Of a stretch of 64,000 nucleotides of DNA, positions 6,355-46,239 are shown piece after piece. Position 1 is the first letter of the stretch; each line of letters opens with the position of its first letter. Source of the stretch: Dehalococcoidia bacterium (GTDB taxonomy: Bacteria; Chloroflexota; Dehalococcoidia; Bin125); the NCBI GenBank assembly GCA_963663235.2, contig CAXXNO010000008.1, positions 160,001 to 224,000 on the forward strand. The letters are read 5' to 3'. The position numbers were made by a program, and so were the translations under genes. A model generated the notes under the pieces. It did not search any database. It was given only the letters and a program-made list of their open reading frames with translations, and had not been told where the DNA came from.

Positions 6355-6430
6355 GGGCCCTTAGCTCAGCTGGCAGAGCAGCGGACTTTTAATCCGAAGG
6401 TCCAGGGTTCGAATCCCTGAGGGCCCACCA
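6355..6430 (+). tRNA. tRNA-Lys(TTT), CCA encoded; attL of the island
   Basis: 76 nt cloverleaf: GGGCCC acceptor stem, D-arm TAGCTCAGCTGGCAGAGC, anticodon loop CTTTTAA, T-arm CAGGG-TTCGAAT-CCCTG. Confidence 0.97.
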
Positions 6431-6566
6431 CCCGCTTCTTCATGGGACCGCCGCGAAGCCGGCCCGAATCGGGCCATGAGCAGCGGACTGCAAATGTTCG
6501 GCTCCGGAATGCGCTTGACTTCGTCCTCCGCCAGAGCGTCCATGGACCGGCCGAAGGGAGGCGTGC

Positions 6567-7530
6567 ATGGCGGCGGAATTCACGCCCGACCCGGGTGAGG
6601 GGACCGGCCTGGATGAGGCCATCGCGGCCTACCTGGCGGCCTGCGAGGTGGAGGGCAAGACCCCGCGCACCGTCCAGGCCTACGCCGAGACCCTGCGCCG
6701 CTTCCGCGCCATCTGCGCCGCCGAAGGCCTGCCCGATCGGGTCGCGGCCTTCCGCGCGGCCCACGTCTACGCCTTCCTCAAGGTCATCTCAGACAGCGGC
6801 GTCTCCCTAGGGACCCGGCACCGCCGCTTCCGCGAGACCCGCGCCTTCTTCTCCTGGTGCACTCGCATGGGCTATACGGCGCGGAACCCCTTCACGGGCA
6901 TCCCCAACGTCAAGGTCGAGCAGAAGGTGATCCAGCCGCTCACCGAGGACGAGATCCAGGCGCTGCTGGCGGTCTGTGATCCCGCCGGCGAGTTCGGCTG
7001 CCGCAACCGGGCGATCATTCTCCTCTTCCTCGACACCGGCCTGCGCTACGCCGAGCTCCACGGCCTCACCCTGGAGGATGTCGACTGGGAGGCCGGCCGC
7101 ATCCATGTCCGCCACGGCAAGGGGCGCAAACAGCGCGTGGTGGCGTTCGGCGCCGGGCCCTCCGGCGCCTTGCGGGACTACGTCGACCGCTTCCGCGGTG
7201 CGGTCCCGGGGGCCCTGTTCCTCACCATCCCGCGGCGGACGCAGCCGCGGCGCCCGATGAACCCGTACCTCTTGGGGACGCTCTTCCAGCGCCTGGGCGT
7301 GCGGGCCGGCGTCCACGCCAATCCCGCATCGCTTCCGGCACACCTTCGCCACCTGGGCGATCGAGAACCACGCCCGGGAGCTGGACGTGCAGTACCTCTT
7401 GGGCCACTCCACCTCGGCGATGGTGCGGCGCTACTCGGCGACCTACGACGCGGCCAAGGCGGCCGCCGCGCACGCCGCCTTCAGCCCCGCCGCCCGCTTG
7501 CTCGCAACCGAGGCCAGCGCGGGCGGCTAA
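6567..7530 (+). pseudogene. Tyrosine recombinase/integrase int1, +1 frameshift near 7325 (may be a sequencing error)
   Basis: Highly similar to 37286-38245. TGLRYAE and HGKGRK in frame; AATCCCGCAT has an extra C before HRFRHTF; LGHS...RRY follow in the shifted frame to TAA 7528-7530. Confidence 0.9.
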
Positions 7531-7536
7531 GCCGGC

Positions 7537-7577
7537 TTCCCAAGCAGAGGGTCGCGGGTTCGAATCCCTTCTCCCGC
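7537..7577 (+). other. 3' half of a tRNA-Gly(CCC) gene (att-like site)
   Basis: TTCCCAA-GCAGA-GGGTC-GCGGG-TTCGAAT-CCCTT-CTCCCGC corresponds to anticodon loop, stem, T-arm and acceptor strand; no 5' half is present. Confidence 0.8.
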
Positions 7578-8702
7578 TGTGGTGTTTCAAAACCCTATCG
7601 GCCTTGTGTGAGTCGCGTCCGCCAGAGAGTCTTCGCGCGGAGGGACGGCGATGTGGCTCTATTGGCGACTGTTTCTGGTCAGGCTGGGAATGCTCGGCCG
7701 GCGGCGACGGGATCTGATCCTCGAGAACCTGATTCTGCGCCAGCAGCTGGCGGTGTGGGAACGGTCCGGACGTCGACCGCGGCTCCAGACGCGCGACCGC
7801 CGGTTCTGGTCCGTCACGGCGCGGAACTGGGCCGGCTGGCGTGCGCATCTGCAGCTCGTTCAACCGGCGACCGTCATCGGGTGGCATCGGTTTGTCTGGC
7901 GCCGATACTGGCGCTGGAAGAGCCGGGGCGGTCAGCTCGGCCGGGTGCGGATCGATCTGGAGACGCGCCGCCTGATTGACCGGCTGGCAGCGGAGAATCC
8001 CACGTGAGGCGTGCGCCGCATCGCAGCCGAGTTCGCTGTGCTGGGGCACCCCGTGAGTCCCACAACGGTCTATCGTTATCGCCGAATCAGGCCGGCGCCG
8101 TCGCCCACCTGGCGGACCTTTCTGCGCCTGCATGCCCCCGAAATCTGGGCGGCCGACTTTTTCACCGTGCAGACGCTTACCTTGCGGACGTTCTACGTCT
8201 TCTTCGTGATCAGTCACGACCGCCGCCGGATCCTGCATGGGAACGTGACCGCGCACCCCACGGCGCCCTGGGTCTGGCGGCAGATCATCGCCGCCACCCC
8301 GTGGAACACGGCGCCTCGCTTCCTGATCCGCGACCGGGATCGCAACGACGGCGGTCACTTCGTGCCGAAGGCGGCGGCCCTGGGGATCGAAACGATCTTG
8401 ACCCCCGTGCGAGCCCCCAAAGCCAACGCGATCGCGGAGCGGGTGATTGGCACGATCCGGCGAGAGTGTCTGGACCATCTCATCGTGCTCACGGAACGGC
8501 ATCTCCGGCGGGTGCTCCGCGAGTACGTCGCCTACGACAACGACACGCGTCCCCACCAGTCTCTGGGCGACCAGCCGCCATCCGGTCCGCGGACGCCGAC
8601 GCTCCGTGGTGGGGCGCAGCGCCTAGCGAGCCGGCCGATTCTGGGCGGCTTACACCATGAGTACTTCTGGGATGCAGCGTGATGAGGTTTTGAAACACCA
8701 CA
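7578..8702 (+). mobile_element. TGT...ACA IS with rve (integrase-core) transposase, IS481/IS3-like; copy a, ORF 7651-8682 with nonsense TGA at 8005-8007
   Basis: Perfect 17 bp IR TGTGGTGTTTCAAAACC; DDE motifs WAADFF / IRDRD / AERVIG; sister copy 48128-49252 has TGG at that codon. Confidence 0.9.
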
Positions 8703-8989
8703 GGTCTTGCCTGATTGAGCATCAACCTTGTGATTGTGGTCACAACCATCCCGGACGAGGGGGGCACAGACACGCGTCCCGGACTCTGCAGTCGGTCTCA
8801 GGATGATCTAGACTCCCTCGAGTCGTACCGCAGGAGTTCGGGACGCTCCAGCGCATCCGATTATCGATGGGGGGCTACCTACTCGCAGATATCAGTACTC
8901 GCTTTTCCACTGTGATCGCTCGTGGCTGGCTTGCACTCGGTTGAGGCGACACAGAAATTAACCGGAGACGCTTCGGAAAGAGGGGAACT

Positions 8990-9394
8990 TTGAAGAAAAC
9001 GTATTCGTCACCGGAGGGCCACTGGATCACTCCGATCAAGATCAATCACTCGCACGGCATCAGGGCGGGGAACATGATCTTCGTGGGAGGGCAAGTCGAT
9101 TTCGACGATAAGGGAAATCTGCAGCATCCGGGTGACATCGTGACCCAGACTCGCGCGGCGATGGATAACCTGAAGCGGATAGTGGAAGATCTGGGCGCCA
9201 CGATGGATGACGTGGTGCAGATCAACACCTTCTATGCCGGAGAAGCCACCGAGGAGGACTGGGTACGCTGCGCCGAGATCCGGTTCGGCTACTTCAAAGC
9301 CCCCGGCCCAACGGCTACCGGCATACACGTGGGGAAACAACTGAACCTCCCTGGTCTCATGGTGGAGGTCAATGCCATCGCGGTCGTTGATTAG
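8990..9394 (+). CDS. RidA/YjgF/UK114 family protein
   Basis: GIRAGNMIFVGGQV...GDIVTQTR...PTATGI...MVEVNAIAV. Confidence 0.85.
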   Translation: MKKTYSSPEGHWITPIKINHSHGIRAGNMIFVGGQVDFDDKGNLQHPGDIVTQTRAAMDNLKRIVEDLGATMDDVVQINTFYAGEATEEDWVRCAEIRFGYFKAPGPTATGIHVGKQLNLPGLMVEVNAIAVVD

Positions 9395-9492
9395 TGGCTA
9401 TGCTTCCACGGGCGTGGATGCAGTCGCATTCGCTTGAGCGATCTTTTTTCCACGGCGTTGCCGAGAACATTGAGGAATCGAGAGGGTGACTC

Positions 9493-10713
9493 ATGACACG
9501 CAGGAAGCCTATATGGTTGGCAACCGGAATCCTCGTGGCGTTTGGACTTCTCGGCGTTGCGGCGGCGTGTGGGGACGACGAGGACGAAGCGGAACAAGCC
9601 GTCGCGCATGCAGTACCCGAGGCTGTGGACTCCAGAGCGCAGCTGGTCGCGCAGTTCCCGGCAGACGTTCAGCCCCTACTCGCGGATATTCCGGAACGCG
9701 TCATCGCGGCTCTCTGGGACGTGCGGCAGCAAGTACCGGGCACCGTGGTGTTCCGGATGTCGGCTGGTGAACTGGAAGATGCCCAAAACCGAGCGTACCG
9801 CGAGGAGTGGGGCAGAATTACGGGCTGGGAGGTTCTTCAGGCGGGCGATTTTCCGACTCTCGCCGACGTGAAGCTCCAGGCAGAGTCGGGCAACCCAGAG
9901 TGGGATATCGTCGAATTAGGTCTCGCGAATGCCGATTTGGCAGCGGACGAGGGTCTGCTTGAGAAGCTAGACCTCAGCCTTCTCCAGCACGCGACCGACC
10001 AGTACCCCGAAGGCTATACGTATACCGACAACTGGATCACCTATACCCAGTCCATGGTGGTCCTTGTGTTCAGGACCGATGTCTACCCGCTTGACGGCCC
10101 GCATCCTGAGATGGTCACGGACCTCTTCAACACCGCGGACTTTCCCGGTAAGCGGTGCATCTTTGGCTTTCCGCAGTACGCAGGCACGCTCGAATATGCG
10201 CTCGTTGCCGACGGGGTAGCAGTCGACGAACTGTACCCTCTGGATGTCGACCGCGCCCTGGCGAAGTTGGACACTGTCAAGGACGATGTCGTGTGGTGGG
10301 GGACCGGTGGCGAAGCGATCCAGTTCATCATCGACGGTCAGTGCGACATGGGGGTCGTCTGGCACGGGCGGCCGGCAATTCGGGTCCGAGACGAGCCAGA
10401 CCTTCCGATCGCCGCAGTGTGGGATGGCGCCATGCTGGCCCCCGGCGCCCTGATGATTCTCAAGGACGCGCCTCACTACGACGCTGCGATGTCACTCCTC
10501 GCTTACTCGCTCACTCCGCAGAACCAGTGCGACCTGCTGAATGACATTGGCTATGGTGTGCCGTTGGACGAGTCGTGCCTGAGCGATTTTGGGGTGGAGT
10601 GGAGCGTTACGGCAGAACACGTCGCGCAGAGCGCCAGTGACGAAGATGCTGCCTACTATGGAGCGAATATCGACCAGCTCATCGAGAAGTTTAATGCTTG
10701 GTTGACCGGCTAG
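9493..10713 (+). CDS. ABC substrate-binding lipoprotein, polyamine/PotD-like class
   Basis: Lipobox AAAC followed by GDDEDE; GNPEWDIV, FPGKR and LYPLDVDRALAKL motifs. Confidence 0.85.
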   Translation: MTRRKPIWLATGILVAFGLLGVAAACGDDEDEAEQAVAHAVPEAVDSRAQLVAQFPADVQPLLADIPERVIAALWDVRQQVPGTVVFRMSAGELEDAQNRAYREEWGRITGWEVLQAGDFPTLADVKLQAESGNPEWDIVELGLANADLAADEGLLEKLDLSLLQHATDQYPEGYTYTDNWITYTQSMVVLVFRTDVYPLDGPHPEMVTDLFNTADFPGKRCIFGFPQYAGTLEYALVADGVAVDELYPLDVDRALAKLDTVKDDVVWWGTGGEAIQFIIDGQCDMGVVWHGRPAIRVRDEPDLPIAAVWDGAMLAPGALMILKDAPHYDAAMSLLAYSLTPQNQCDLLNDIGYGVPLDESCLSDFGVEWSVTAEHVAQSASDEDAAYYGANIDQLIEKFNAWLTG

Positions 10714-10947
10714 TGAGAGTGGAAGGTCCGATTTTGCGTGGTCATCCCACTGCTGAGGGACGGATCTCTAGGTGAGAGTTGTATGACGGGGCAGGGAACA
10801 ACAGGAGCCTCCGTGTCGGTGTTAAGGCGGAAGTAGCGGGCCGAGAGACGTTGCTGGACGGAGTAGATGTGTGCCTCACACCTAATGGCGACCGCTACAT
10901 GATGGGGCAGTCGCGCTTCGCCTCGGCGAAGTGATTTCGAGCTTCAC

Positions 10948-11985
10948 ATGATGGGCGCCCCATTCGCTCTGAGTGTCATCAGCGACGGACGCCCAGCGCC
11001 CGGAGATCGGAACTACCAGCGACGCTTTGAGGAACTCCTGGAGGAAGCGCGCGTCGCCGATAGGCTCGGATTCCGCGGGTTTTGGACCTGCGAGCAGCAT
11101 TACGCGGCCGACGATGGGCATCTGGGTGCACAGTTCGCAGCCTTGGCCGGCTTGGCGACAAGCACGTCACGGCTGCGGCTCATGACGAATACTCTGCTGT
11201 TGCCGTTGTACCAGTGGAGGCAAGTCGTTGAGCAGGCTGTCGTGGTCGATCTCCTGTCCGGCGGCCGGCTGGAGATCGGGGTCGCGGGGGGTGGCAACGA
11301 GCGCGACTTCGATATGTTCGGTGTCGACTTCCACCGGCGCGGAGAGCTCATGGAACGGGGCATTCCGTTCATACGCCAAGGACTGGTGGCGGGCGAACTC
11401 GCCGACGGGCCGGGCGGTACCCTGTTGCCAATGACCCCCCGCCCAGTGCAAGAGCGTGTCCCAATCCTCGTCGGTGGCCTCTCTCCTCCTGCTGTAGACC
11501 GCGCGGTGCGGTTGGGCGATGGGCATCTCGCTTATGACTACGAACGGTTCGAGGAGAATCTGCCGAAGTTCTGGGACAGTCAACTGCGGCCGGCGATGGA
11601 CCGGCACGGTCGGTCCCTCGCAGATTTTCGATTCACGGCCACGGCGCCGTTCTGGGTGTCGGAAGATCCGGAGCGTGATTGGGAGATCCTCTACAAACCC
11701 GCCTACGCATTCCACATGGGCCAGTACCTGAAGCGCTACCGCTTCCGCACAGCGCAAGACGGCCAACAATATGTGCCGCCTGGTGTAGCCACCGACTTCC
11801 GGCGAGAAGATGTGCTCGTCGACACACCAGAGAACATCGCGCACCGCCTCCTGGCTACGTGGCGAAAAGCGCCTTGGCACGAGTTCAGCTTTTTCTGCCG
11901 ACTTCCCGGTATCCCACATGAACGAACGCTGGAGCATCTTGAATTTGTAGCCCATCGACTAGTTCCGCTGCTTACCGCTGGCTGA
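10948..11985 (+). CDS. LLM-class flavin-dependent oxidoreductase
   Basis: ADRLGF..FW.CEQH, D.LSGGRLEIGVAGG and PILVGG motifs. Confidence 0.88.
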   Translation: MMGAPFALSVISDGRPAPGDRNYQRRFEELLEEARVADRLGFRGFWTCEQHYAADDGHLGAQFAALAGLATSTSRLRLMTNTLLLPLYQWRQVVEQAVVVDLLSGGRLEIGVAGGGNERDFDMFGVDFHRRGELMERGIPFIRQGLVAGELADGPGGTLLPMTPRPVQERVPILVGGLSPPAVDRAVRLGDGHLAYDYERFEENLPKFWDSQLRPAMDRHGRSLADFRFTATAPFWVSEDPERDWEILYKPAYAFHMGQYLKRYRFRTAQDGQQYVPPGVATDFRREDVLVDTPENIAHRLLATWRKAPWHEFSFFCRLPGIPHERTLEHLEFVAHRLVPLLTAG

Positions 11986-12223
11986 CGTCGGCGAGACTGA
12001 GCGGGATTTCGGAGAGGCAAGGGGGTCCCTGTCGGCCGATCTTGCTGAGGGTGATCACCGGCGAACGCCTGATCTACAGGAGTCGGGATGGTGGGTTGGT
12101 GGTCCGGCCCTCATTCGACCGGAGGCGGTGTAGCGTGGACAGGACGCGTGCTGGGCAGGGAGGGCGCCGGCGCGGGCTCCACGAGATGCGCCGCGTCGAT
12201 CCCCCCACCTCGGTGACCGCTGC

Positions 12224-13351
12224 ATGAGTCGATCGGCAAGCGCAGAGGGCGCCGCCGAAGTGCGCCTCGAGGGGATTCAGCACCGCTTCGGCGAAGTCTG
12301 GGCCGTCCGCGGGATCTCCCTGACAGTTAAGCCTGGAGAGTTCCTCACCCTCCTCGGTCCGAGCGGATCGGGGAAGACCACGCTGCTCCGCATCATCGGT
12401 GGGCTCCTCCGGCCTTCTGAAGGCCGCGTGTACGTCGCCGGTCAGGACATCACGGCCCACCCGCCTCAAAAGCGCAACATGGGCTTCGTGTTCCAGAACT
12501 ATGCTCTCTTTCCCCACTTGTCGGTGTACGACAACGTGGCCTTTCCTCTGCAGATACGCAGAATGCGGCGCCAAAAAATACGCGATCGGGTGAACGAGGT
12601 CCTGACCCTGGTCCAGCTCACTGGTTTGGAGAACCGGTACCCGGCTCAGCTGAGTGGGGGTCAGCAGCAGCGCGTCTCGCTCGCTCGCGCGATCGTCTTC
12701 TATCCCAACGTCTTGCTCATGGACGAGCCGTTGGGATCCCTTGATAAGCGCTTGCGTCAGCAGTTGCAGTTGGAGCTTCGGCACCTCCAACACGATCTTG
12801 GCATCACGGCCATTTACGTCACACACGATCAAGAAGAAGCATTTGCCATGTCTGATCGGATTGCGGTCGTGCACGAGGGAGAACTTCGCCAGCTCGATCA
12901 GCCGTCGCAGGTCTACCGGAAGCCAGGTGACTCCTTCATCGCTGACTTTGTCGGCGACCTGAACCGCTTTGAGGGAGAGCTCGTCCAGAGCAACGGTCCG
13001 ACGGGTGTGTTGAGGACGTCGGACGGGATGGAGATCCTGATCAGCCTGCATGGCGTCGCGCAGGGAAGTCGACAGTTCGTCTGCGGCATCCGACCCGAGC
13101 GCGTGGAGGTCGGCGAAAACGCCGTGGGAGATAATCGCTACCGCGGAGTAGTCCGCGCTCTGACCTTTCAAGGTACCCACTACCGTTGTGAACTCGAGCT
13201 CCCGAACGGGAGGAGGGTATCCGCTTCAATCTACCGAGAAGATCCTGGAGTGCGGGAGGGGGAGGAAGTCTGGTTGGGATGGAACGCCGAGGAGGCACTG
13301 GTATTTGGCGGAGACTTCAACTCGAATGAGTCCGGCTTCAATGAGCGCTGA
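12224..13351 (+). CDS. ABC ATPase (PotA-like) with C-terminal TOBE domain
   Basis: GPSGSGKT, LSGGQQQR, LMDEP and YVTHD motifs. Confidence 0.93.
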   Translation: MSRSASAEGAAEVRLEGIQHRFGEVWAVRGISLTVKPGEFLTLLGPSGSGKTTLLRIIGGLLRPSEGRVYVAGQDITAHPPQKRNMGFVFQNYALFPHLSVYDNVAFPLQIRRMRRQKIRDRVNEVLTLVQLTGLENRYPAQLSGGQQQRVSLARAIVFYPNVLLMDEPLGSLDKRLRQQLQLELRHLQHDLGITAIYVTHDQEEAFAMSDRIAVVHEGELRQLDQPSQVYRKPGDSFIADFVGDLNRFEGELVQSNGPTGVLRTSDGMEILISLHGVAQGSRQFVCGIRPERVEVGENAVGDNRYRGVVRALTFQGTHYRCELELPNGRRVSASIYREDPGVREGEEVWLGWNAEEALVFGGDFNSNESGFNER

Positions 13352-13384
13352 AGGCTGTGAGCCGACGAGGAGCGCGGAACAGTA

Positions 13385-14269
13385 ATGCAGAGAGCGCTCA
13401 CGCTCCAGAAGACGATCGTGCAGCCTCGTACGCGCAACGCACTTCTGGCAGCGTGTCTCTTGGGTCCCACGCTTGTCTTGCTCGGCGTTCTGTTCGTCTA
13501 CCCTCTTGTCGACGGTGTGTTGATACGAAGTTTTTCTGATCCTGAGGTGGGGTTTCAGAACTATACGCGTCTCTACAGTTCTGTAGCATTCCGGAACATC
13601 CTGCGACTCACGTTCGAGATAGCGTTGTACACGACGCTGGTGTGCCTACTTCTTGCGTATCCATTCGCTTATTTTCTAACGACACTGCCGAAGCGGCGTG
13701 CACAATTCTTTTTGGCGCTCAGCCTCGTTCCATTCTGGACCGCGATCCTCGCCCGCCTTTATGCCTGGACAGCGATATTAGGGCGCCGCGGTATCATCAA
13801 CGATTGGTTGATAGAGGCCAACCTTATCGATGAGCCGATCGATCTTCTGTTCAACCGTACCGCGGTGATCATCGGCATGGTCCACATTCTGCTTCCATTC
13901 ATGATCATCATTCTCTATTCCACCATGATCGCGATCGACCGCGAGCTGCAAGATGCTGCAAGAAGCCTTGGAGCCAGCGGCTTTCAGACCTTTCGGCGTG
14001 TGTTCCTCCCACTCTCGATGCCTGGCGTCTACGCGGGTGTCCTCCTGGTCTTCATCATCTCGCTTGGATTTTTCATCACACCGGCTGTGCTGGGTGGCGG
14101 GGGCGACATCACTATCGCCATTTTCGTCCAACAGCAGGTGAGCATCTTGAATTGGGGCGTGGCTAGCGCCATGAGCATGGTGCTGCTCGTGGTTACAATC
14201 ATTCTCTTCTTCGTATTCAACCGATTGTTCGGCGCCGAGCGGATGGTAGCGGGAGCCTTGCGCGGATGA
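13385..14269 (+). CDS. ABC permease (PotB-like)
   Basis: Several TM segments; EAA-type loop DAARSLGAS. Confidence 0.9.
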   Translation: MQRALTLQKTIVQPRTRNALLAACLLGPTLVLLGVLFVYPLVDGVLIRSFSDPEVGFQNYTRLYSSVAFRNILRLTFEIALYTTLVCLLLAYPFAYFLTTLPKRRAQFFLALSLVPFWTAILARLYAWTAILGRRGIINDWLIEANLIDEPIDLLFNRTAVIIGMVHILLPFMIIILYSTMIAIDRELQDAARSLGASGFQTFRRVFLPLSMPGVYAGVLLVFIISLGFFITPAVLGGGGDITIAIFVQQQVSILNWGVASAMSMVLLVVTIILFFVFNRLFGAERMVAGALRG

Positions 14270-15093
14270 CCGTGGTGCGCAGAGTCAGCCCTATGAGAGT
14301 CGTTCTCTACATCGTCTTCGTGGGCGTGCTCATCTTCTTGTTCCTGCCGCTTATCGTGGTGATTCCCATTTCGTTCAACCCCGGAACAGTATTGCGGTTC
14401 CCTCCCGATGGCATCTCGCTGCGCTGGTACAACGACTTCTTTGGCGATCAGCGCTGGCTCGACGCTGCGTGGCTGAGCCTGCGCCTTGGCATCACCGTAG
14501 CCATTCTTGCAACCGTGTTAGCGCTCGGAGCCGCCGTCGCCCTGACGCGCTTCGTGACCGTGGGGAAGCCGCTGCTGCGGGCATTGATCCTGTCACCCCT
14601 CATCGTCCCCCTCATCGTCACGTCCATCGCCGTCTTCGAAGTCTTCAATGAACTCGGTCTCCTGCGATCTTTCTGGGGGCTCGTTCTTGCTCACACGATT
14701 TTGGCTCTGCCATTTGGCGTGATCATTATCGAGAGCGCATTGAGGAATTTCGACGTCACGCTGGAAGAGGCGGCTATGAGTCTCGGGGCGTCGCGCCTGG
14801 TCGCGTTCCGCAGGATCACCGTGCCGTTGATCGCGCCTGGTCTGTTCGGCGCAGCGGTCATCGCCTTCATTACTTCATGGGACGAAGTGGTTATGGTTCT
14901 GTTCGTCGGCGGTGCCAGGAACCAGACTCTCCCGGTCAGAATGTTTCAGTTCCTCGAGACGCAGATTCGTCCGACGATTGCGGCGATTTCGACGCTCTTG
15001 ATTGTCGCGTTGCTGATAGCCCTTGTTCTCCGTCAACTCTTAATCCTTCGCCAGCGGCGCCGGATGGGTTCTGTCAGATCTCAGGGCTCGTAA
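14266..15093 (+). CDS. ABC permease (PotC-like); last 8 codons supplied by an IS6 end
   Basis: EEAAMSLGAS, FITSWDEV and TLPV motifs. Confidence 0.9.
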   Translation: MTVVRRVSPMRVVLYIVFVGVLIFLFLPLIVVIPISFNPGTVLRFPPDGISLRWYNDFFGDQRWLDAAWLSLRLGITVAILATVLALGAAVALTRFVTVGKPLLRALILSPLIVPLIVTSIAVFEVFNELGLLRSFWGLVLAHTILALPFGVIIIESALRNFDVTLEEAAMSLGASRLVAFRRITVPLIAPGLFGAAVIAFITSWDEVVMVLFVGGARNQTLPVRMFQFLETQIRPTIAAISTLLIVALLIALVLRQLLILRQRRRMGSVRSQGS

Positions 15094-15110
15094 CTGTAGC
15101 GGAGCCTCGC
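15067..15110 (+). mobile_element. Solo IS6-family terminal inverted repeat
   Basis: GGTTCTGTCAGATCTCAGGGCTCGT is identical over 25 bp to the reverse complement of 62605-62629. Confidence 0.85.
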
Positions 15111-15119
15111 CCCCGACTC

Positions 15120-16361
15120 TGACCTGCCCCCCCAAAACTGATCCACGCGGAGTGAGAGGATTCCGGGGATCGGGAAGGGAGCCGGCATGGCACGCAAGCG
15201 GTACGCGGCCGAGGAGATCATCGGCAATCTGCGGGAAGCGGAAGTGGCCTTGGCCCAGGGCCAGACGATCGGAGCGGTGGCGCGGACGCTTGGGATCAGC
15301 GAGCCGACCTCTTACCGCTGGCGCCGGGAGTACGGCGGGTTGCGGGTCGATCAGGCGAAGCGGCTGAAGGAGCTCGAACGGGAGAACAGCCGCCTGAAGC
15401 GGCTGGTGGCGGACCAGGCGTTGGACAATGCGATGTTGCGAGACGTCGCAGCGGGAAACTTCTGAGCCCGGCCAAGCGGCGCCGGGCGACCACCCATCTC
15501 ACCGACCAGTACGCCGTGTCCGAGCGGCGGGCCTGCCAGGTCACTGGCCAGGCGCGGGCGACGCAGCGCTCTGTGCCCCGGCCGTCCACGGATGAGCCGG
15601 CGCTGATCGCGCGAATCGTCGCCCTGGCCACGCGCTTCGGCCGCTACGGCTACCGCCGCATCACGGCCCTGCTGCGTCAGGAAGGCTGGCGCGTGAACCA
15701 CAAGCGGGTCGAACGGCTCTGGCGCCAGGAAGGCCTGCGGGCCCCCGTGAAACAGCCCAAGCGGGGCCGCCTCTGGCTCGGGGACGGCTCGCTGGTGCGG
15801 CGGCGGGCCGAACGGCCCCACCACGTCTGGTCCTACGACTTCGTCTTCGACCGCACCGCCGAGGGGCGCCCGGTGCGGATCCTCGCCATCGTGGACGAGG
15901 ACCACGCGCGAGTGCCTGAGTCTCGACGTGGCCCGCCGGCTGTGCAGCGACGACGTCCTGGCGCGGCTGGCCCAGCTCTTCGTCGAGCGCGGGCCGCCGA
16001 CGTTTCTGCGGTCCGACAACGGCCCGGAGTTCACCGCCACCGCGGTGCGGGACTGGCTGCACCGGGTCGGGGTCACGACCCTCTTCATCGAACCGGGCAG
16101 TCCCTGGGAGAACGGCTATGTGGAGTCCTTCAACGGCAAGCTGCGCGACGAGTGCCTCAACCGCGAACGCTTCGACACGCTGCTCGAAGCCCAGGTCCTC
16201 ATAGAGGGCTGGCGGCGGGAATATAACCAGATCCGGCCCCACAGTGCGCTGGGATATCGCCCCCCGGCCCCCGAGACCCAGCAACCCCGGGAAGGTCCCC
16301 TGCCAATCCTCCCGGCGATCGGACTAACTTAACGACTGGTACAACGATCGGGGGCAGGTCA
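15120..16361 (+). mobile_element. IS3-family element, copy 1 (orfA 15187-15465; orfB ~15462-16332 with extra frameshift at ~15900)
   Basis: IR TGACCTGCCCCC/GGGGGCAGGTCA; 5 bp duplication GACTC (15115-19, 16362-66); slippery GGGAAAC at the orfA end; WSYDF, SDNGPEF and ENGYVESFNG motifs. Confidence 0.93.
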
Positions 16362-16892: not shown

Positions 16893-16921
16893 GCCCATCA
16901 GGTGCTATGTCCGCTGCCTGC

Positions 16922-18035
16922 TGTACTGGCCCAAAACTCTGTCCGTCTTGCCCGAGGGCCCTGTGAGGCTGAGCCTCCCGACCGAGGAGATCGGTCATGT
17001 GGCTCTACTTTCGCCTGTTCCTCCTGGGGCTCCGGCTGCTCCGCCGCGATCGCCGGGATCTCGTGCTGGAGAACCTCGCCCTGCGGCAGCAACTGGCGGT
17101 TTTCGAGCGCCGCGGCCGCCGGCCGACGCTCGGACCGGCGCTTCTGGTCGCGCCTCGCCCGGGGCTGGCACCCATGGCGGCGGCATCTCGTCCTGGTCCA
17201 GCCGGACACCGTGGTGCGCTGGCATCGGACCGTGTGGCGGATCCACTGGCGTCGGACGAGTCGGGTGCGCCGACTGGGCCGCCCGCGCGTCGACCCGGCG
17301 GTGATCGCCTTGATCCGGCGGCTGCGACACGAGAACCCGACCTGGGGAACGCGACGGATCCAGGGCGAACTCCATCAGCTGGGGCTCTCCGTGAGCCGCA
17401 CCACGATCCAGCGCTACGGCTCTCGACCCGCGCCCTCGCCGAGCTGGCGCACCTTCCTCCGGCTCCACGCGGCCGAGATCTGGGCCTGCGACTTCTTCAC
17501 CGTGCAGACGCTGACGTTCCGCACGCTCCACGTCTTCTTCGTGATCACGCATGCCCGCCGCGCCCTCGTGTATTGGAACGTCACGCGGCACCCCACGGCC
17601 GCTTGGGTTTGGCAGCAGATCCGCGAAGCCACCCCGTGGGGTCAGCACCCGCACTATCTAATCCGCGATCGCGATGCCAAGTTCGGTGGCGATTTCGTCC
17701 CGCGTGCCCGGGGCATCGGGATCGAAACGATCCGCACCCCGTTCCGCGCGCCCCAGGCGAATGCCATCGCCGAGCGCGTCGTCGGCACGCTGCGCCGCGA
17801 GTGCCTCGACCACGTGATCGTGCTCAACGAGCGGCATCTCCGTCGGCTCTTACGCGAGTACGTGGCCTTCTACAACGCGGCGCGTCCGCACCAAGCTCTC
17901 GACCAAGCGCCCCCTGCCGGCGACCGGGGAAGCGGCGGGCCTGGGACGCGAGTCGTGGGCGAGCCTATCCTCGGCGGCTTGCATCACGTCTACCGATGGG
18001 CCGCCTGACGCCGGACAGGGTTTTGGGCCGCCACA
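16922..18035 (+). mobile_element. TGT...ACA rve IS, copy b (transposase 16997-18008, frameshifted near 17130)
   Basis: IRs TGTACTGGCCCAAAACTCTGTCCG / TGTGGCGGCCCAAAACCCTGTCCG (reverse complement); WACDFF, IRDRD and AERVVG motifs. Confidence 0.9.
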
Positions 18036-19812: not shown

Positions 19813-19858
19813 GCCAGGCTCTTGCGCCTTAGTGCACCGATTGGGAAGCAGCGAGGTG

Positions 19859-20264
19859 TTACCCGGCCGCGCCGGCCTCGGTTGCGAGTAAGCGGGCGGC
19901 GGGGCTAAACGCGGCGTGCGCGGCGGCCGCCTTGGCCGCGTCGTAGGTCGCCGAGTAGCGGCGCACCATGGCCGAGGTCGAGTGCCCGAGGAGGTATTGC
20001 ACGTCCAGCTCCCGGGCGTGGTTCCCGATCGCCCAGGTGGCGAAGGTGTGGCGGAAACGGTGGGGATTGGCGTGGACGCCGGCCCGGACCCCCAGGCGCT
20101 GGAAGAGCGTCCCCAAGAGGGACGGGTTCATCGGACGCCGCGGCTGCGTCCGCCGCGGGATGGTGAGGAACAGGGCTCCGGGGACCGCGCCGCGGAAGCG
20201 GTCGACGTAGTCCCGCAAGGCGCCGGCGGGCCCGGCGCCTTGCGGGACTACGCGCTGTTTGCGC
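19859..20264 (-). pseudogene. C-terminal fragment of a third tyrosine integrase (int3)
   Basis: RKQRVV...HANPHRFRHTFATW...LGHSTSAMVRRY, nearly identical to int1; 5' part removed at an IS end. Confidence 0.9.
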
Positions 20265-21379
20265 TGTGGCGGCCCAAAACCCTGTCCGGCGTCAGGGCGG
20301 CCCATCGGTAGACGTGATGCAAGCCGCCGAGGATAGGCTCGCCCACGACTCGCGTCCCAGGCCCGCCGCTTCCCCGGTCGCCGGCAGGGGGCGCTTGGTC
20401 GAGAGCTTGGTGCGGACGCGCCGCGTTGTAGAAGGCCACGTACTCGCGTAAGAGCCGACGGAGATGCCGCTCGTTGAGCACGATCACGTGGTCGAGGCAC
20501 TCGCGGCGCAGCGTGCCGACGACGCGCTCGGCGATGGCATTCGCCTGGGGCGCGCGGAACGGGGTGCGGATCGTTTCGATCCCGATGCCCCGGGCACGCG
20601 GGACGAAATCGCCACCGAACTTGGCATCGCGATCGCGGATTAGATAGTGCGGGTGCTGACCCCACGGGGTGGCTTCGCGGATCTGCTGCCAAACCCAAGC
20701 GGCCGTGGGGTGCCGCGTGACGTTCCAATACACGAGGGCGCGGCGGGCATGCGTGATCACGAAGAAGACGTGGAGCGTGCGGAACGTCAGCGTCTGCACG
20801 GTGAAGAAGTCGCAGGCCCAGATCTCGGCCGCGTGGAGCCGGAGGAAGGTGCGCCAGCTCGGCGAGGGCGCGGGTCGAGAGCCGTAGCGCTGGATCGTGG
20901 TGCGGCTCACGGAGAGCCCCAGCTGATGGAGTTCGCCCTGGATCCGTCGCGTTCCCCAGGTCGGGTTCTCGTGTCGCAGCCGCCGGATCAAGGCGATCAC
21001 CGCCGGGTCGACGCGCGGGCGGCCCAGTCGGCGCACCCGACTCGTCCGACGCCAGTGGATCCGCCACACGGTCCGATGCCAGCGCACCACGGTGTCCGGC
21101 TGGACCAGGACGAGATGCCGCCGCCATGGGTGCCAGCCCCGGGCGAGGCGCGACCAGAAGCGCCGGTCCGAGCGTCGGCCGGCGGCCGCGGCGCTCGAAA
21201 ACCGCCAGTTGCTGCCGCAGGGCGAGGTTCTCCAGCACGAGATCCCGGCGATCGCGGCGGAGCAGCCGGAGCCCCAGGAGGAACAGGCGAAAGTAGAGCC
21301 ACATGACCGATCTCCTCGGTCGGGAGGCTCAGCCTCACAGGGCCCTCGGGCAAGACGGACGGAGTTTTGGGCCAGTACA
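20265..21379 (-). mobile_element. TGT...ACA rve IS, copy c (inverted near-identical copy of b)
   Basis: Same IRs and same internal frameshift as 16922-18035. Confidence 0.9.
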
Positions 21380-21495
21380 GGGGTTTTGGCACCCTCCAGC
21401 CGGGCGGAGTAAGCTTCGGGGGCGGAGATGGCCTTACGGGTCGCGGGCTTCGTCTCCGACCGATCTCCGAAGGACTCGCTACGAGGGAGAATCTT

Positions 21496-36240: not shown

Positions 36241-36875
36241 TTAAGGACGCGCTTGAGCGTCGTTCGGCTGCCGCGCCCACGAAGGCGCTCCAAGATCTGC
36301 GCCTCCAGCATCGCGCGGGCTTGGTCCAACGGCAGACAGTCCAGAAGGGCCTCCCGGACGTGGTGTGCCTCGACGTTGGGACCCACACCGAGGACCGCGT
36401 AGCGCCGGTCGCGCAGTTCGATAGCCATGCTCGGAGGGATATCATCGAACCGACCGATCGCTTTGAGGACGCGGCGATTCTCGTGACGCCGGCCGGGTGT
36501 ACGGCGCAGCGACATGAGAATGTCCGCCGCTCCGCCCCAAGCGCTACTCCCGCGCGCTGAGTCCCCAATATCGCCCCCGCTTTTTCGACCGTGGCGGACG
36601 ACGATGACCGAAACGCCGGCCTCCGCCAGGCGAGCGACATCCCGCAACGCGGCGAGGGCTTCCCCCGAGGAGTTCTCGCCTTCGCCAGGAATCTCGGCCC
36701 ACGTCGGAGCCGGGAGCGTGGCGAAGAGAGCGGCCCGCTCCTGCTTCGCCTGCAGGCAGGCGGCCGTGAACGGGGGGTGGCGGTTGTAGCAGTCAAGGAG
36801 GTAGATGAGCCCGGCGGTGTCGAGGGCGCCGGCGAGGCGGGGATGGCTGGGGAAGCGTGCGCCTTGCGGGCTCAC
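36241..36875 (-). pseudogene. Chimeric remnant containing the C-terminal part of an AAA_25/RepA-like helicase
   Basis: VIVVRHGRK...ARGSSAWGGAADILMSL motif; Walker A region missing. Confidence 0.6.
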
Positions 36876-36992
36876 GGCCGATCCAGTTCAGTCATACTTG
36901 AATGATAGTTCGCCGGCGAGGCGGAGATGGCCGGGAACGCGTTCGCACCGAGGGCTCACGGCCCGCTCCAATCGTTCATAGATGAATGATAG
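36827..36992. repeat. Two diverged tandem ~82 bp units (period 84)
   Basis: 36827-36908 and 36911-36992 share CGCCGGCGAGGCGG, GGGCTCACGGCC and TGAATGATAG. Confidence 0.8.
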
Positions 36993-37101
36993 CGATCACG
37001 CGCTCCAAAGCCCACGGCGGCACGTCCGTTCGCCCGATTGCCCTCCAGATAGCGCACGGCGCCAACCTCGTCCCACAATTCGCAAAATGGCGAGCGGCTG
37101 C

Positions 37102-37146
37102 CTTTTAATCCGAAGGTCCAGGGTTCGAACCCCTGAGGGCCCACCA
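37102..37146 (+). repeat. 3' half of tRNA-Lys (attR of island 1 / attL of the next element)
   Basis: CTTTTAATCCGAAGGTCCAGGGTTCGAACCCCTGAGGGCCCACCA; 44/45 identity to 6386-6430. Confidence 0.93.
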
Positions 37147-37285
37147 CCACGCTTCTTTATTAGGCCGGGCTGCAATCCGGTCGAAACCGGGTCTGGAGCT
37201 TCGGACTGCAACGGTTCTGCTCCGCGATTCGCTTGACTTCATCCCCCGATCAGAGCGTCCATGGATGGGCGAAAGGGGGGCAATC

Positions 37286-38245: not shown

Positions 38246-38268
38246 CCCTCTGCTTCCCAAGCAGAGGG
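38246..38268. other. Symmetric att-like core CCCTCTGC-TTCCCAA-GCAGAGGG
   Basis: Perfect 8 bp inverted arms around the tRNA-Gly(CCC) anticodon loop, starting directly after the int2 stop codon. Confidence 0.7.
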
Positions 38269-38592
38269 CCCACGGCGCCTGCGGCCAGCGCATGGCTTTC
38301 CTATCTGGGGAGGCAGACCGCACGGAATAATGAGCCCCCACAGCCCGGGGAAGCGCCCTTTGCGGTCGCTTGCATTCATCCCTGCAGCCTACGGCGGGCG
38401 CGCGTGCCCTGCGGCATGCCGGACAGCGCTGTGCATCCGCTCGGAGGTGGCCGCCCGCGAACAGACGAATGGAGCCCGCCATCGGACGACTCGCGCGGGC
38501 AGGTCACGGATCGACCCGAACCTCGTCCCACAATTCCCAAAATGGCCGACGTTCTCCCTTATCCTTCATACGACCCACTAGGGAGAACCACG

Positions 38593-40242
38593 ATGCGAAT
38601 AATCCTCATCGCTCTCTTGACGGGGATGCTGCTGCTGGCGTGCAGCCAGGGCACGGGAAGCAATACGCCCGACGATGCGGTTCCTGCCGAAACTCTGGCC
38701 ACGGACAGGAGCCATTCTTCGCGAGTCTTCCCTCGAGGAGAGACCTCGCTCGAAGAGAGGATCGCCAACTACCCCACCGTCGTCAGAGCTCGGATGACCT
38801 CCGAGTCCACCGAGGTGGTCGCCGGGGCGGGGAGGTTTGAGGGTAACTACTACGCTGCCTTGAAGTTCGACCTTGAAGTCGGTGAGTACCTGAATGGGAC
38901 AGGTGCCGACAACATCACGGCGATATGGGTCGCAGCCGATGAATTCGGCACCCGCCAGGAAGCCGAAGACGCGTTGCCCGACATCCGCGCCCGAAGGGAT
39001 ACGCAATGGGACAATCGGGAGGCGGTCTTCTTCCTGCAAGACCTGGGTGATGCTCAGGCTTTTCCCCTTGATGTCTTACCTACATTGCAGGGTGACAACC
39101 ATTACTACCTGTCGTTCGGTTTCTCTCAGCCCCACCGGGACGGCTACAGCCTGTCCAGCGAATACAGTAAGTTGTGGCTGCCGGCGACCGAGATCGCTTC
39201 GGGCGCTACCGGCCAGAGCGGGACCGTGCGGGACGGCCAGGAGTTCCTCCTGGCCGTCCCGACGGACCCAGCCGGTGCAGGCGCAAGTGGCGCGAGCACA
39301 CCGGCGGGTCCAACGATAACGCTGGGCGACCTGAAACAGCGGCTCGCAGCTGTTACCGCTGAGCTTAGCGCCAGCGACGGCTCGGAAGAATACAAAGAAT
39401 GCGTCCGGTTTAAATATCAGAATGAGCGCGAGGATAGGTACTTCATAGCCGAGGGTGAGGGTCGGCGAGTCTACGTCACGCATCCTACACATGAATTCGA
39501 CTCCGGCCAGCCCGCCGGCACCACGATCTATGAAGACGAAGTCGTCAGCGCCGAATCAACTGAACAGAGATCAAGGCTCTGGTTCGATGGACGGGACTCT
39601 GCCCTATTCGATGTCGTGACTGGCGACCTCGTACCAGAGCGCTCTGCATTTACATTCACCCAGACCGTGGTCTCTGCGCGGCCGATTCCCGCAGGAGAAT
39701 ACAAGGTCAATAACAATTACCTTCTGTTGGCCTTCATTCCCTGCAATCACGTCTTCACCTACGAAATGACGATGACCGTGACGGCACCCGAGGGCACTGT
39801 TCACGAGGCGTTCTTCGATCCGGTGGTGATTGGCGCGGCGGTAGGCGCCGACGGCTCACGTGGTGTTTTGAAGCCGGCGTCGTTTGCCATCGAGGGGGTG
39901 GGCACAACAGACATCAAGCGGATCCGGTGGGAGTCAGCAAGGGTCGAGATGCAGATTGATCCGCCCGGGAGGCCCACAGGCCATCACATCGACTTCATCG
40001 CCCTAGACGGGACGGTCGTGCTGCGGCTGGATTTCGACGACGCTGTCGACGTTGTTGAGGAGGGCCGCACGCGCGCGCTGACCTGGGGGGTATGCGAGCG
40101 GTCTTGGAATGACGGAGACCTTCTGATGCTGCGCATCAGTGAAAGTCCTCCCGGCCTGACTGGCGCGACCAACGATGTGCTATGTCCCCCGCCACCGCCT
40201 CAGAACCTGACGGCTTCCTTTCCTCCACGCAGGACTCGGTGA
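38593..40242 (+). CDS. Large lipoprotein of unknown function; possible truncated fibronectin-III start at the 3' end
   Basis: MRIILIALLTGMLLLAC lipobox; PPQNLTAS.. / ..QDSVTLTW split by a frameshift near 40220. Confidence 0.7.
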   Translation: MRIILIALLTGMLLLACSQGTGSNTPDDAVPAETLATDRSHSSRVFPRGETSLEERIANYPTVVRARMTSESTEVVAGAGRFEGNYYAALKFDLEVGEYLNGTGADNITAIWVAADEFGTRQEAEDALPDIRARRDTQWDNREAVFFLQDLGDAQAFPLDVLPTLQGDNHYYLSFGFSQPHRDGYSLSSEYSKLWLPATEIASGATGQSGTVRDGQEFLLAVPTDPAGAGASGASTPAGPTITLGDLKQRLAAVTAELSASDGSEEYKECVRFKYQNEREDRYFIAEGEGRRVYVTHPTHEFDSGQPAGTTIYEDEVVSAESTEQRSRLWFDGRDSALFDVVTGDLVPERSAFTFTQTVVSARPIPAGEYKVNNNYLLLAFIPCNHVFTYEMTMTVTAPEGTVHEAFFDPVVIGAAVGADGSRGVLKPASFAIEGVGTTDIKRIRWESARVEMQIDPPGRPTGHHIDFIALDGTVVLRLDFDDAVDVVEEGRTRALTWGVCERSWNDGDLLMLRISESPPGLTGATNDVLCPPPPPQNLTASFPPRRTR

Positions 40243-40435
40243 CCCTGACGTGGACTGACTTGCCCCATCTCCAAGTCGTGGCGACAGGTGCTGTCGCATT
40301 GGAGGCGAGGTGCGCGTCGTTCACCGAGCGGGGGCGAAGCCCGTCGCGCCCCGTATACGCACGCTCCGACGGGGCGTCGCGGTGTTCCTGGCGCCCCAGG
40401 GCCGGGTTGGAGCGTCCGAAGGATCGGCGGGGCCC

Positions 40436-41557
40436 TGTGGTGTCTCAGAAGTCGATCGGCATTGCCTAAATGCTTTGATCGCCGGAGCCTCCAGGCGGAG
40501 GCACGGCGATGTGGATCTATTGGCGGCTCTTTCTGATCGCGTTGCGCCTGACGGGGCGCCGACGCCAAGACTTTGTCCTAGAGAACCTGGTGCTGCGGCA
40601 ACAGCTGGCGGTCTGGGAGCGCACGGGGCGGCGCCCGACGTTGGCGGCCGCGGATCGGCGCTTCTGGTCCGTGACCGCGCGGCACTGGCGGGGGTGGCGT
40701 CGGCATGTCCAGCTGGTGCAGCCCGCCACCGTGGTCGGTTGGCACCGGACGGCGTGGCGGCGCTACTGGGGTTGGAAGAGCCGCGGACGACCTAGGGGTC
40801 GTCCGCGCATCGATCCCATCATCCGCTGCCTGATCGTCCGGATCGGGGCGGAGAATCCGACCTGGGGCGTGCGGCGCATCGCGGCCGAGCTGGCGGTGCT
40901 GGGCCATCCGGTCAGCGCGGCAACGGTGCAGCGGTATCGCGGGGACCGCCCTCCCTCGCCCAGTTGGCGGACCTTTCTGCGCCTGCACGCGTCCGAGATT
41001 TGGGCGGCCGACTTTTTCACCGTGCAGACGCTTACCTTGCGGACGTTCTACGTCTTCTTCGTGATCAGTCACGACCGCCGCCGGATCCTGCATGGGAACG
41101 TGACCGCGCACCCCACGGCGCCCTGGGTCTGGCGGCAGATCATCGCCGCCACCCCGTGGAACACGGCGCCTCGCTTCCTGATCCGCGACCGGGATCGCAA
41201 CGACGGCGGTCACTTCGTGCCGAAGGCGGCGGCCCTGGGGATCGAAACGATCTTGACCCCCGTGCGAGCCCCCAAAGCCAACGCGATCGCGGAGCGGGTG
41301 ATTGGCACGATCCGGCGAGAGTGTCTGGACCATCTCATCGTGCTCACGGAACGGCATCTCCGGCGGGTGCTCCGCGAGTACGTCGCCTACGACAACGACA
41401 CGCGTCCCCACCAGTCTCTGGGCGACCAGCCGCCATCCGGTCCGCGGACGCCGACGCTCCGTGGTGGGGCGCAGCGCCTAGCGAGCCGGCCGATTCTGGG
41501 CGGCTTACACCATGAGTACTTCTGGGATGCAGCGTGATGAGGTTTTGAAACACCACA
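40436..41557 (+). mobile_element. TGT...ACA rve IS, copy h, chimeric; open ORF 40509-41537
   Basis: Left end TGTGGTGTCTCAGAAG and 5' half diverged from copy a; from 41001 onward it matches copy a. Confidence 0.9.
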
Positions 41558-41844
41558 GGTCTTGCCTGATTGAGCATCAACCTTGTGATTGTGGTCACAA
41601 CCATCCCGGACGAGGGGGGCACAGACACGCGTCCCGGACTCTGCAGTCGGTCTCAGGATGATCTAGACTCCCTCGAGTCGTACCGCAGGAGTTCGGGACG
41701 CTCCAGCGCATCCGATTATCGATGGGGGGCTACCTACTCGCAGATATCAGTACTCGCTTTTCCACTGTGATCGCTCGTGGCTGGCTTGCACTCGGTTGAG
41801 GCGACACAGAAATTAACCGGAGACGCTTCGGAAAGAGGGGAACT

Positions 41845-42249: not shown

Positions 42250-42347
42250 TGGCTATGCTTCCACGGGCGTGGATGCAGTCGCATTCGCTTGAGCGATCTT
42301 TTTTCCACGGCGTTGCCGAGAACATTGAGGAATCGAGAGGGTGACTC

Positions 42348-43568: not shown

Positions 43569-43802
43569 TGAGAGTGGAAGGTCCGATTTTGCGTGGTCAT
43601 CCCACTGCTGAGGGACGGATCTCTAGGTGAGAGTTGTATGACGGGGCAGGGAACAACAGGAGCCTCCGTGTCGGTGTTAAGGCGGAAGTAGCGGGCCGAG
43701 AGACGTTGCTGGACGGAGTAGATGTGTGCCTCACACCTAATGGCGACCGCTACATGATGGGGCAGTCGCGCTTCGCCTCGGCGAAGTGATTTCGAGCTTC
43801 AC

Positions 43803-46206: not shown

Positions 46207-46239
46207 AGGCTGTGAGCCGACGAGGAGCGCGGAACAGTA

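Follow-up and report, generated by a model that had tools for sequence, protein, structure and literature searches.

Why should an integrase gene that stands behind one transfer RNA (tRNA) be followed, directly after its stop codon, by a piece of another? This question was raised by a window from a Dehalococcoidia bacterium, the window being the whole stretch of 64,000 nucleotides (nt) that was analyzed (G000:C8:160001-224000; assembly G000 comprises 2.75 Mb in 14 contigs with 68% guanine plus cytosine). It contains three tyrosine integrase genes or gene remnants (int1, int2, and int3) that belong to a group associated with tRNA-Lys(UUU), termed here the Lys clade, and each is trailed by sequence resembling the anticodon arm of tRNA-Gly(CCC), the target of a sister Gly clade. 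The preliminary description had proposed either that the enzyme carries two attP sites and can integrate at either tRNA, or that the second site is a point of cargo exchange or capture behind the integrase gene, and the latter fits best. The Gly piece is read here, with a probability of about one half, as a real and formerly used second recombination site at the boundary between integrase module and cargo, with either the adjacent Lys-type or a co-resident Gly-type integrase as the enzyme. The conserved Gly-type core behind the integrase gene is what is new; for the most part the locus is otherwise a tandem array of islands of an ordinary kind.

The arrangement given in the preliminary description was confirmed for all three genes of the window (Table 1). 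The gene int1 follows a complete tRNA-Lys, and after a 6-nt linker past its stop the 3' half of tRNA-Gly(CCC) begins with the loop TTCCCAA. Compared with the native tRNA-Gly(CCC) of a relative, this half covers positions 29-72 and is 95.5% identical over 44 nt (E=4e-14); its T stem has one C:T mismatch. The gene int2 stands behind a tRNA-Lys 3' half and its stop is followed by CCCTCTGC-TTCCCAA-GCAGAGGG, and the int3 fragment has TGC-TTCCCAA 11 nt past its stop, after which the sequence is unrelated. The int1 and int2 modules aligned at 80% from 6371/37088 to 7551/38268, ending exactly after GCAGAGGG, while int3 was 92% identical to int1 over 407 nt. The 15-mer TTCCCAAGCAGAGGG occurred exactly twice; at up to three mismatches its three matches were not above chance (25 of 100 shuffles reached three), and because the chance figure was computed at that tolerance, the significance of the repeat rests on its position and on the genome-wide copies.

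Those copies were numerous, with 29 occurrences of GCTTCCCAA in the G000 assembly, six of them directly behind integrase 3' ends and three at the start of Gly 3' halves with no integrase directly upstream; a seventh int-linked copy lies on C14. Eleven junctions were aligned with the loop as anchor, seven from G000 (int1, int2, int3, C14, C4:941363, C4:943501, and C4:484833), three from G003, and one from G005. Over these three genomes a 15-nt core, C-N-G-C/TTCCCAA/N-C-N-G, was almost invariant: all seven loop columns were identical in 11/11 junctions, as were C-4, C-1, C+2, and G+4, and G-2 was kept in 10/11. Further to the left, columns -5 to -12 had a top base in only 5-8 of the 11, and the linker between stop and core varied in sequence and in length (6-11 nt).

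To the right of the loop the downstream sequence changed across the 11 junctions, which is the flank switching at TTCCCAA that the preliminary description had set as a test. About seven classes of right flank were distinguished behind two lineages of integrase C-termini, with several flanks in each lineage. A flank beginning CCCACGG... was common to int2, G003, and G005, and four or five others exist; Gly-type 3' halves, intact to decayed, followed four of the 11 junctions (int1, C14, G003 A11695, and, roughly, C4:943501). Two segments were bracketed by direct repeats of the site. The first (G000 C4:941363-943501) lies between copies of a 117-nt repeat, 94% identical, made up of the integrase 3' end and the core, and holds an HxlR regulator and an acyl-coenzyme A (CoA) dehydrogenase, with a frame running into the last ~30 integrase codons; the second is a 3-kb segment of G003 C2 between two copies of CCGGTTGATC.CCTGC-TTCCCAA. 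Two more site pairs in G000, 2.4 kb and 0.2 kb apart, were in inverted orientation. An invariant core next to a variable linker, with changing flanks and bracketed inserts, has the look of a used recombination site and is hard to obtain from neutral decay.

Intact genes for the tRNA that supplied the core were not found by ARAGORN in the 92%-complete G000 assembly, where 46 tRNAs were called; both tRNA-Gly(CCC) and tRNA-Gly(UCC) were missing, and because the essential UCC gene is among them this is no proof of absence. In G000 tRNA-Gly(CCC) was present as fragments only, including several next to a degraded Gly-clade integrase at C4:33-35 kb, and no tRNA-Gly 5' half was found in the assembly, the best match (C3:7964-8023) covering positions 16-75. 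The isolated Gly halves at C3:7979, C4:33052, and C4:34586 have three different T stems with compensating changes, and therefore these halves come from different functional tRNA-Gly genes or att copies. As a separate observation, C3:7700-8300 shows in order a piece of tRNA-Gly(CCC) that runs from its D arm through its 3' end, another Gly 3' piece in a decayed state, a decayed piece of tRNA-Lys with the loop CTTTAAA, and an integrase gene at the contig end, with an inverted TTCCCAA 220 nt upstream, an order that fits no simple integration model.

The wider family was surveyed with integrases gathered from the genomes of relatives, GTDB (one genome per species), and JGI metagenomes, scanning 320 nt on either side of each gene against a tRNA library. 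The tree and the counts cover 143 distinct full-length integrases, with partial or interrupted genes (including int1 and L005), products <250 amino acids (aa), and duplicates left out. A full tRNA-Lys or its 3' half stood upstream of all eight integrases with at least 79% identity to int2; two of these had Gly-CCC pieces and three an exact TTCCCAA downstream. Among the five at 67-78%, four had Lys sequence upstream, and none had a tRNA piece or TTCCCAA downstream. The 91 integrases at 41-66% had an upstream piece in a single case and downstream pieces in 32 (Gly-CCC 16, Lys-UUU 8, Gly-UCC 4, Arg-UCU 3, Asn 1), with exact TTCCCAA behind eight, so that 31 of these 32 pieces came from all-pyrimidine anticodons (CCC, UUU, UCC, UCU). 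At 40% or less (n=39), tRNA sequence was upstream in 34 (Pro, Val, Lys, Leu, Met, and others) and downstream in four, and exact TTCCCAA was downstream in none; this more distant upstream-tRNA clade uses Pro, Val, Leu, Met, and other targets. In the FastTree phylogeny, which gives local support values only and has many long branches, a clade of 104 integrases was well supported and had three subclades; the Lys-upstream clade fell within one of them, and the other two were dominated by downstream att pieces. The close clade was found in few genomes, 8 of 65 family genomes having a match at E<=1e-40.

The sister Gly clade (41-66%) has TTCCCAA and the tRNA-Gly(CCC) 3' half 50-220 nt past the integrase gene, in the same orientation, as its sole att site. 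One of its members, L123 in G048, has a perfect Gly half downstream and a decayed Lys-type half upstream, and shares its left (P) arm with the Lys-clade copy L124 of the same genome; in either clade, one site is thus kept in good state while the other decays. L194, in which a full tRNA-Gly follows an integrase whose nearest kin have Lys halves, was uninformative because its C-terminus and downstream region are unrelated to those kin. In two other genomes an integrase 68% identical to int2 (L011 in G015, L012 in G009) follows the tRNA-Lys 5' half (positions 1-40) rather than the 3' half, and extra Lys 3' halves occur 95 kb to 1.5 Mb away, one of them inverted; this layout may represent a 5'-fragment island class or a rearrangement.

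On the favored reading, in which the Gly piece is a formerly used second site, the region would be the integration module of an island family that piles up in tandem at tRNA-Lys(UUU), and the tRNA-Gly(CCC) anticodon stem-loop 6-11 nt past the integrase stop would serve as a second att-type core of the kind that the sister clade uses, downstream of its integrase, as sole att site. The core would mark the boundary between the conserved integrase module and variable cargo, and repeated site-specific recombination at TTCCCAA would have changed the sequence on its right by joining it to real tRNA-Gly 3' halves, by inserting 2-3-kb segments, and by replacing cargo. A sister Gly-clade enzyme could have been the actor at this core; the G000 assembly holds Gly-clade integrase fragments only, and G003 has an intact one (L033). 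Bases C-4, G-2, C+2, and G+4 and a loop Y-T-Y-Y-Y-A-A are common to the Gly-type core and the tRNA-Lys(UUU) anticodon arm, a consensus that fits four of the 46 G000 tRNAs (Lys-UUU, Lys-CUU, Glu-UUC, and Arg-UCU); it is plausible that one enzyme could recognize both cores.

Several results weigh against a second site with a history of use. The right flanks share a generic tRNA-3'-half pattern to about +14 (T+9 8/11, C+10 10/11, G+14 11/11), and part of the apparent switch may be old divergence of tRNA-like halves and not exchange. No reciprocal product was seen, the int2-type right flank occurring only behind integrases, at four places in 3 of 61 family genomes, and the hybrid CTTTTAA+GCNG was absent from G000 and the family loci; matches to it in loci L081 and L106 were rejected as their contexts are unrelated. 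Behind int1 and C14 the T stems of the Gly halves contain mismatches, so that these halves are not being kept as tRNA parts. Across 18 loci in five relatives, five had a full tRNA-Gly(CCC), and none of these five had a Lys-clade integrase. The core is missing from 5 of the 8 full-length integrases at >=79% and from all five at 67-78% (it is missing behind L003, L004, and L010, decayed behind L016, and displaced behind L020 by an insertion sequence (IS) 4 nt past the stop), and therefore integration at tRNA-Lys does not need it. All events look old, the bracketing repeat being only 94% identical, with no sign of present activity, and the sample is small and related, consisting of three genomes and two integrase lineages with gene flow between them. 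Three further leads were set aside. The TCCG... flanks (G003 A8717, G003 L016, and G000 C4:484833) had been considered as decayed Lys halves, that is, Gly x Lys hybrids, but BLAST against the integrase modules gave nothing at E<=0.01 and the best matches in the tRNA library were of 8-10 nt (E>=0.29). Contig joints 38543->15 nt->38251, 38544->CG->37064, and 38215->37107 in public sequencing runs are hints of permuted or tandem modules and not evidence, being seen in contigs only, at low depth, with sides of 21-34 nt and 90% likeness. Adjacent tRNA-Gly(CCC) and tRNA-Lys genes as a trivial source were dismissed, as no locus holds both.

It is rather unlikely that the core is an inert relic of an ancestral or foreign attP(Gly), brought in by fusion with a Gly-type element and given its various flanks by IS elements, deletions, and old divergence. 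Downstream att sites could be ancestral, predominating as they do in two of the three subclades of the 104-integrase clade; IS elements abut several of the junctions (at 7578 behind int1, 27 nt on from int3, and at L020); decay is visible in the Gly halves, and many relatives have lost the site; and the P arm common to L123 and L124 suggests that chimeras arose by homologous exchange. Decay of a relic should keep pace with that of the sequence around it, yet the 15-nt core stayed invariant in 11 junctions next to a linker that varies, both integrase lineages have their boundary at the same loop, and direct repeats of the site enclose two segments. A chance resemblance of an intrinsic terminator, or of a structure at the 3' end of the integrase mRNA, to the tRNA-Gly anticodon arm is very improbable. 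The int2 copy does form a 10-bp hairpin right past the stop (minimum free energy of the 55 nt -23.2 kcal/mol), but its z-score is only -1.7, it has no T tract, and a terminator scan did not call it; the int1 and int3 copies lack a hairpin (z -0.3 and +1.2) and yet retain the loop and flanking bases, and int1 and C14 carry the full tRNA-Gly 3' half, which a terminator does not need. An intrinsic terminator was rejected on the missing T tract and on the hairpin being present in one of three window copies.

The proposal of the preliminary description that one integrase recognizes both cores and integrates at tRNA-Lys or at tRNA-Gly(CCC) was not supported and is considered unlikely. Both cores fit C-N-G-N / Y-T-Y-Y-Y-A-A / N-C-N-G, seven int-linked TTCCCAA junctions occur in an assembly without an intact Gly-clade integrase, L123 combines a Lys-type half upstream with a Gly half downstream, and the all-pyrimidine anticodons of 31 of the 32 downstream pieces at 41-66% identity mean that target hopping among such loops happens in the family. 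Against these points, a Gly-clade integrase may be unassembled in the 92%-complete G000, and L123 belongs to the Gly clade, its Lys half being the decayed one. An intact tRNA-Gly with a Lys-clade copy was not found, and none of the Lys-clade copies in G000, G003, G005, G009, G015, and G048 shows the expected counterpart, the same element at tRNA-Gly with an unused Lys half. The int2-type site cannot rebuild tRNA-Gly because only 8 nt of the 3' stem are kept, and integration there would break the gene; the int1 and C14 halves are decayed, and many Lys-clade integrases lack the site. A fuller version, in which a single Xer-like integrase acts on two heterospecific cores flanking its own gene (CTTTTAA upstream and TTCCCAA downstream), lands in either tRNA, and has cargo between a Gly site on the left and a Lys site on the right swapped by double crossover, is distinctly unlikely.

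In most respects the locus is ordinary: at least two integrase-only genomic islands are stacked in tandem at tRNA-Lys, and they belong to the anticodon-loop class, a common one. The only tRNA called by ARAGORN in the window is tRNA-Lys(UUU); its 3' half recurs in the same orientation 30,716 nt away, with 44 of 45 nt identical (one mismatch) from the anticodon loop onward, and none of 100 shuffles gave two matches. To the left of the loop the flanks of the two Lys sites differ, and an integrase gene adjoins each, int1 starting 136 nt past the tRNA and int2 139 nt past the Lys half. Left contexts changed exactly at the Lys loop both in genomes and in the contigs of all four public runs examined. 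These runs provide assembled contigs only, whose source may be related organisms; in 4/4 runs contigs ended loose exactly before 37102, with several left sides, some of them tRNA-Lys-like, which fits other occupancy states, although related organisms could be the source. As far as sequence comparison can establish, these data demonstrate that the Lys half is a working attachment site with crossover in the anticodon loop CTTTTAA, which bears out, for Lys, the earlier assumption of crossover in a 7-nt loop. The only chromosomal target in evidence for the Lys clade is tRNA-Lys.

The island module spans ~1.2 kb and comprises the Lys 3' half, a conserved upstream element, the integrase gene, and the Gly-type core. 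Cargo in the 30.7 kb between the Lys sites and behind int2 includes ATP-binding cassette (ABC) transporters, luciferase-like monooxygenases, CoA-transferase, enoyl-CoA hydratase, short-chain dehydrogenase, and several IS elements. Neither in the island 1 segment nor in the DNA behind int2 were genes seen for phage functions, conjugation, or an excisionase. In G003 five Lys sites point in one direction, 9.7-12.6 kb apart, with an integrase after each, while G005 has a single 30.9-kb island. From the int2 3' end onward, 2,223 nt are 99.9% identical between G000 and G003, which indicates recent gene flow.

Table 1. Attachment-site sequences, integrase genes, and adjoining elements of the window, and the tandem array in G003.
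Feature	Position	Strand	Remarks
tRNA-Lys(UUU) gene, attL of island 1	6355..6430	+	ARAGORN; 3' half recurs at 37102-37146
Crossover loop CTTTTAA of the tRNA-Lys gene	6386-6392	+	within 6355..6430
Conserved upstream element of int1	6515..6547	+	TTGACT 6515-6520; AGAGCGTCCATGGAC 6533-6547 with palindrome GTCCATGGAC
int1, Lys-clade tyrosine integrase, out of frame	6567..7530	+	ATG 6567, TAA 7528-7530; tblastn
Gly-type core behind int1	7531..7551	+	linker GCCGGC, loop TTCCCAA 7537-7543, right arm GCAGAGGG
tRNA-Gly(CCC) 3' half, anticodon loop to acceptor position 72	7537..7577	+	match to native tRNA-Gly(CCC)
IS with DDE rve_3 transposase, directly after the Gly half	7578..8704	+	removes end of Gly half; opens the 7.6-kb unit duplicated at 40495-48127
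Gly-type core behind int3	19837..19858	-	CACCTCGCTGC, TTCCCAA 19847-19841, TCGG, then unrelated sequence
int3 fragment, residues about 186-317	19859..20264	-	cut by IS at 20265; tblastn
tRNA-Lys 3' half, right boundary of island 1 and left boundary of island 2	37102..37146	+	repeat of the 3' 45 nt of the tRNA
Loop CTTTTAA of the Lys 3' half	37102-37108	+	within 37102..37146
int2, intact Xer-like tyrosine integrase, 319 aa	37286..38245	+	open frame; Pfam PF00589
Gly-type core behind int2	38246..38268	+	CCCTCTGC/TTCCCAA/GCAGAGGG, perfect 8-7-8 inverted repeat
G003 array of five int-headed units (~10-12 kb)	C2:7742-32232 and C1:1988250-1997986		tRNA-Lys sites, one direction

As had been supposed, the integrase is compact and lacks an arm-binding domain; it is an Xer-like tyrosine recombinase. 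Residues 125-293 of int2 match PF00589 at 123.3 bits (cut-off 27.1, E=1.2e-35), and the only Pfam matches in the protein are SAM-like core-binding domain(s) from residue ~22 of 319 and the catalytic domain. R160, K188, H254, R257, H280, and Y289 were invariant in an alignment of nine integrases and are taken here to be the catalytic residues, with roles assigned from XerD and lambda Int. The nearest solved structures were Xer-type (4a8e, 5hxy, 1a0p), and separate, distant Xer-like genes lie on G000 C6 (27-29% identity). A search for circular or free forms of the element among viruses and plasmids gave no close relatives of int2 in IMG/VR (best 34%) or PLSDB (~31% among the matches listed). Relative to int2 and int3, the CCC run at 7323-7325 of int1 is longer by one C, which shifts it by 1 nt against int3, and tblastn with int2 recovered it as two pieces in different frames (76% and 100% identical); the extra C could be a real frameshift or a homopolymer error. 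Upstream of the integrases, TTGACT is followed after a spacer of ~13 nt by AGAGCGTCCATGGA, which contains the palindrome GTCCATGGAC. This motif was also present at 37233-37266 and in L006, L007, L014, L015, L123, and L139-L143, and is common to integrases of the Lys clade, the Gly clade, and a 70% clade, between which protein identity is only 45-70%; it is a candidate promoter or operator.

Attachment sites within tRNA genes were reportedly arranged by sublocation in a scheme of Williams in 2002, whose anticodon-centered sites would be the Islander class 'A'. The present islands resemble that class in having an intact tRNA and a displaced 3' fragment at their ends, an adjoining integrase gene, identity from the anticodon loop, and tandem accretion, and differ from it in the second core, derived from another tRNA, directly behind the same integrase. 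No description of one integrase gene flanked by att pieces of two different tRNAs was found in a limited literature search. An attP just 3' of the integrase gene is known in other elements, the pSAM2-type order int-attP. The sister Gly clade likewise has TTCCCAA and tRNA-Gly(CCC) sequence downstream of the gene in the same orientation, but as its one site only, whereas in the Lys clade the core abuts the stop (6-11 nt), is mostly without a tRNA 3' half, and accompanies a working upstream Lys site. In engineered recombinase-mediated cassette exchange, heterospecific sites flank a unit and a double crossover swaps the cargo without loss; the likeness is purely conceptual, as two cores with different spacers flank a unit here as well and their use by one enzyme is hypothetical.

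Integrons also combine a tyrosine recombinase that lacks an arm-binding domain with a gene-adjacent site gathering foreign segments. In place of an upstream, divergent attI and attC-bounded cassettes, the present site lies 6-11 nt past the integrase stop and mimics a tRNA anticodon arm, no attC-type sites are present, and the only two bracketed segments are bounded by repeats of the integrase end plus TTCCCAA. The likeness to Xer recombinases and to integrative mobile elements exploiting Xer (IMEX) consists in the Xer-type nearest structures, the two domains, and a simple core, but the target is an 8-7-8 tRNA anticodon arm and not a 28-bp dif with a 6-bp spacer, and the gene is island-borne. 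In the Islander report, 2083 of 3919 islands were anticodon-centered and only four arrays of at least three islands occurred in 2168 genomes (PMC4383910); by these counts the tandem depth of G003, with five int-headed units, is rare. Within the same bacterial class, the ssrA-specific islands of Dehalococcoides are likewise stacked at one small-RNA gene and are described as tandem, with a conserved, swappable left-edge integration module that is phylogenetically discordant with the cargo (PMC3146451). Unlike the present islands, they depend on the serine recombinase DsiB and on an ssrA repeat of 20 bp, and they have no second site (PMC3146451).

Other repeats and genes of the window were noted. 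At its right end, island 1 has a pair of 82-nt direct repeats that are 76% identical (36827-36992), and a 35-nt motif (37057-37091 and 38512-38546, 89%) occurs just left of the Lys site and again to the right of the Gly core, at a distance of 244 nt; the repeats and the motif may serve as accessory or arm-type sites. Each island contains one copy of a 7.6-kb unit (7637-15247 and 40495-48127, 97.8% identical), with an IS, a RidA-like protein, a solute-binding protein, a luciferase-like monooxygenase, an ABC ATPase, and two permeases; its IS copies (7578-8704 and 48128-49254) are 99.6% identical, and the unit therefore looks like a composite transposon. Inverted IS copies at 16921-18035 and 20265-21380, 99.8-100% identical, bracket a 2.2-kb piece with int3 that could flip by homologous recombination. 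The open reading frame (ORF) 38593-40242 encodes a lipoprotein-like product of 549 aa with no Pfam family, for which a protein atlas gave no lead. In 4/4 runs the summed contig depths over 38561-40253 were mostly tens to hundreds of times those of upstream island 1 DNA, and contigs over the ORF ended loose at 38561 and 40253; the ORF therefore also sits in other, much more abundant contexts.

Target change by tyrosine integrases is poorly understood, and in this family close enzymes occur at tRNA-Lys(UUU), tRNA-Gly(CCC), tRNA-Gly(UCC), and tRNA-Arg(UCU), all with all-pyrimidine anticodons, while one small clade has the cores of two targets around a single integrase gene. If the second core is active, it would provide a mechanism for shuffling cargo between islands and a directly testable intermediate of a target switch, with a 319-aa enzyme and sites of 15-23 bp; as a relic, it would still date the change by which an upstream Lys site took the place of a downstream Gly site. 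Should a single enzyme prove to use both cores, the system would be a natural cassette exchange and would show, in a living form, an intermediate stage on the way to a new integrase target. For the Dehalococcoidia, the locus extends heavy island accretion beyond the known ssrA case.

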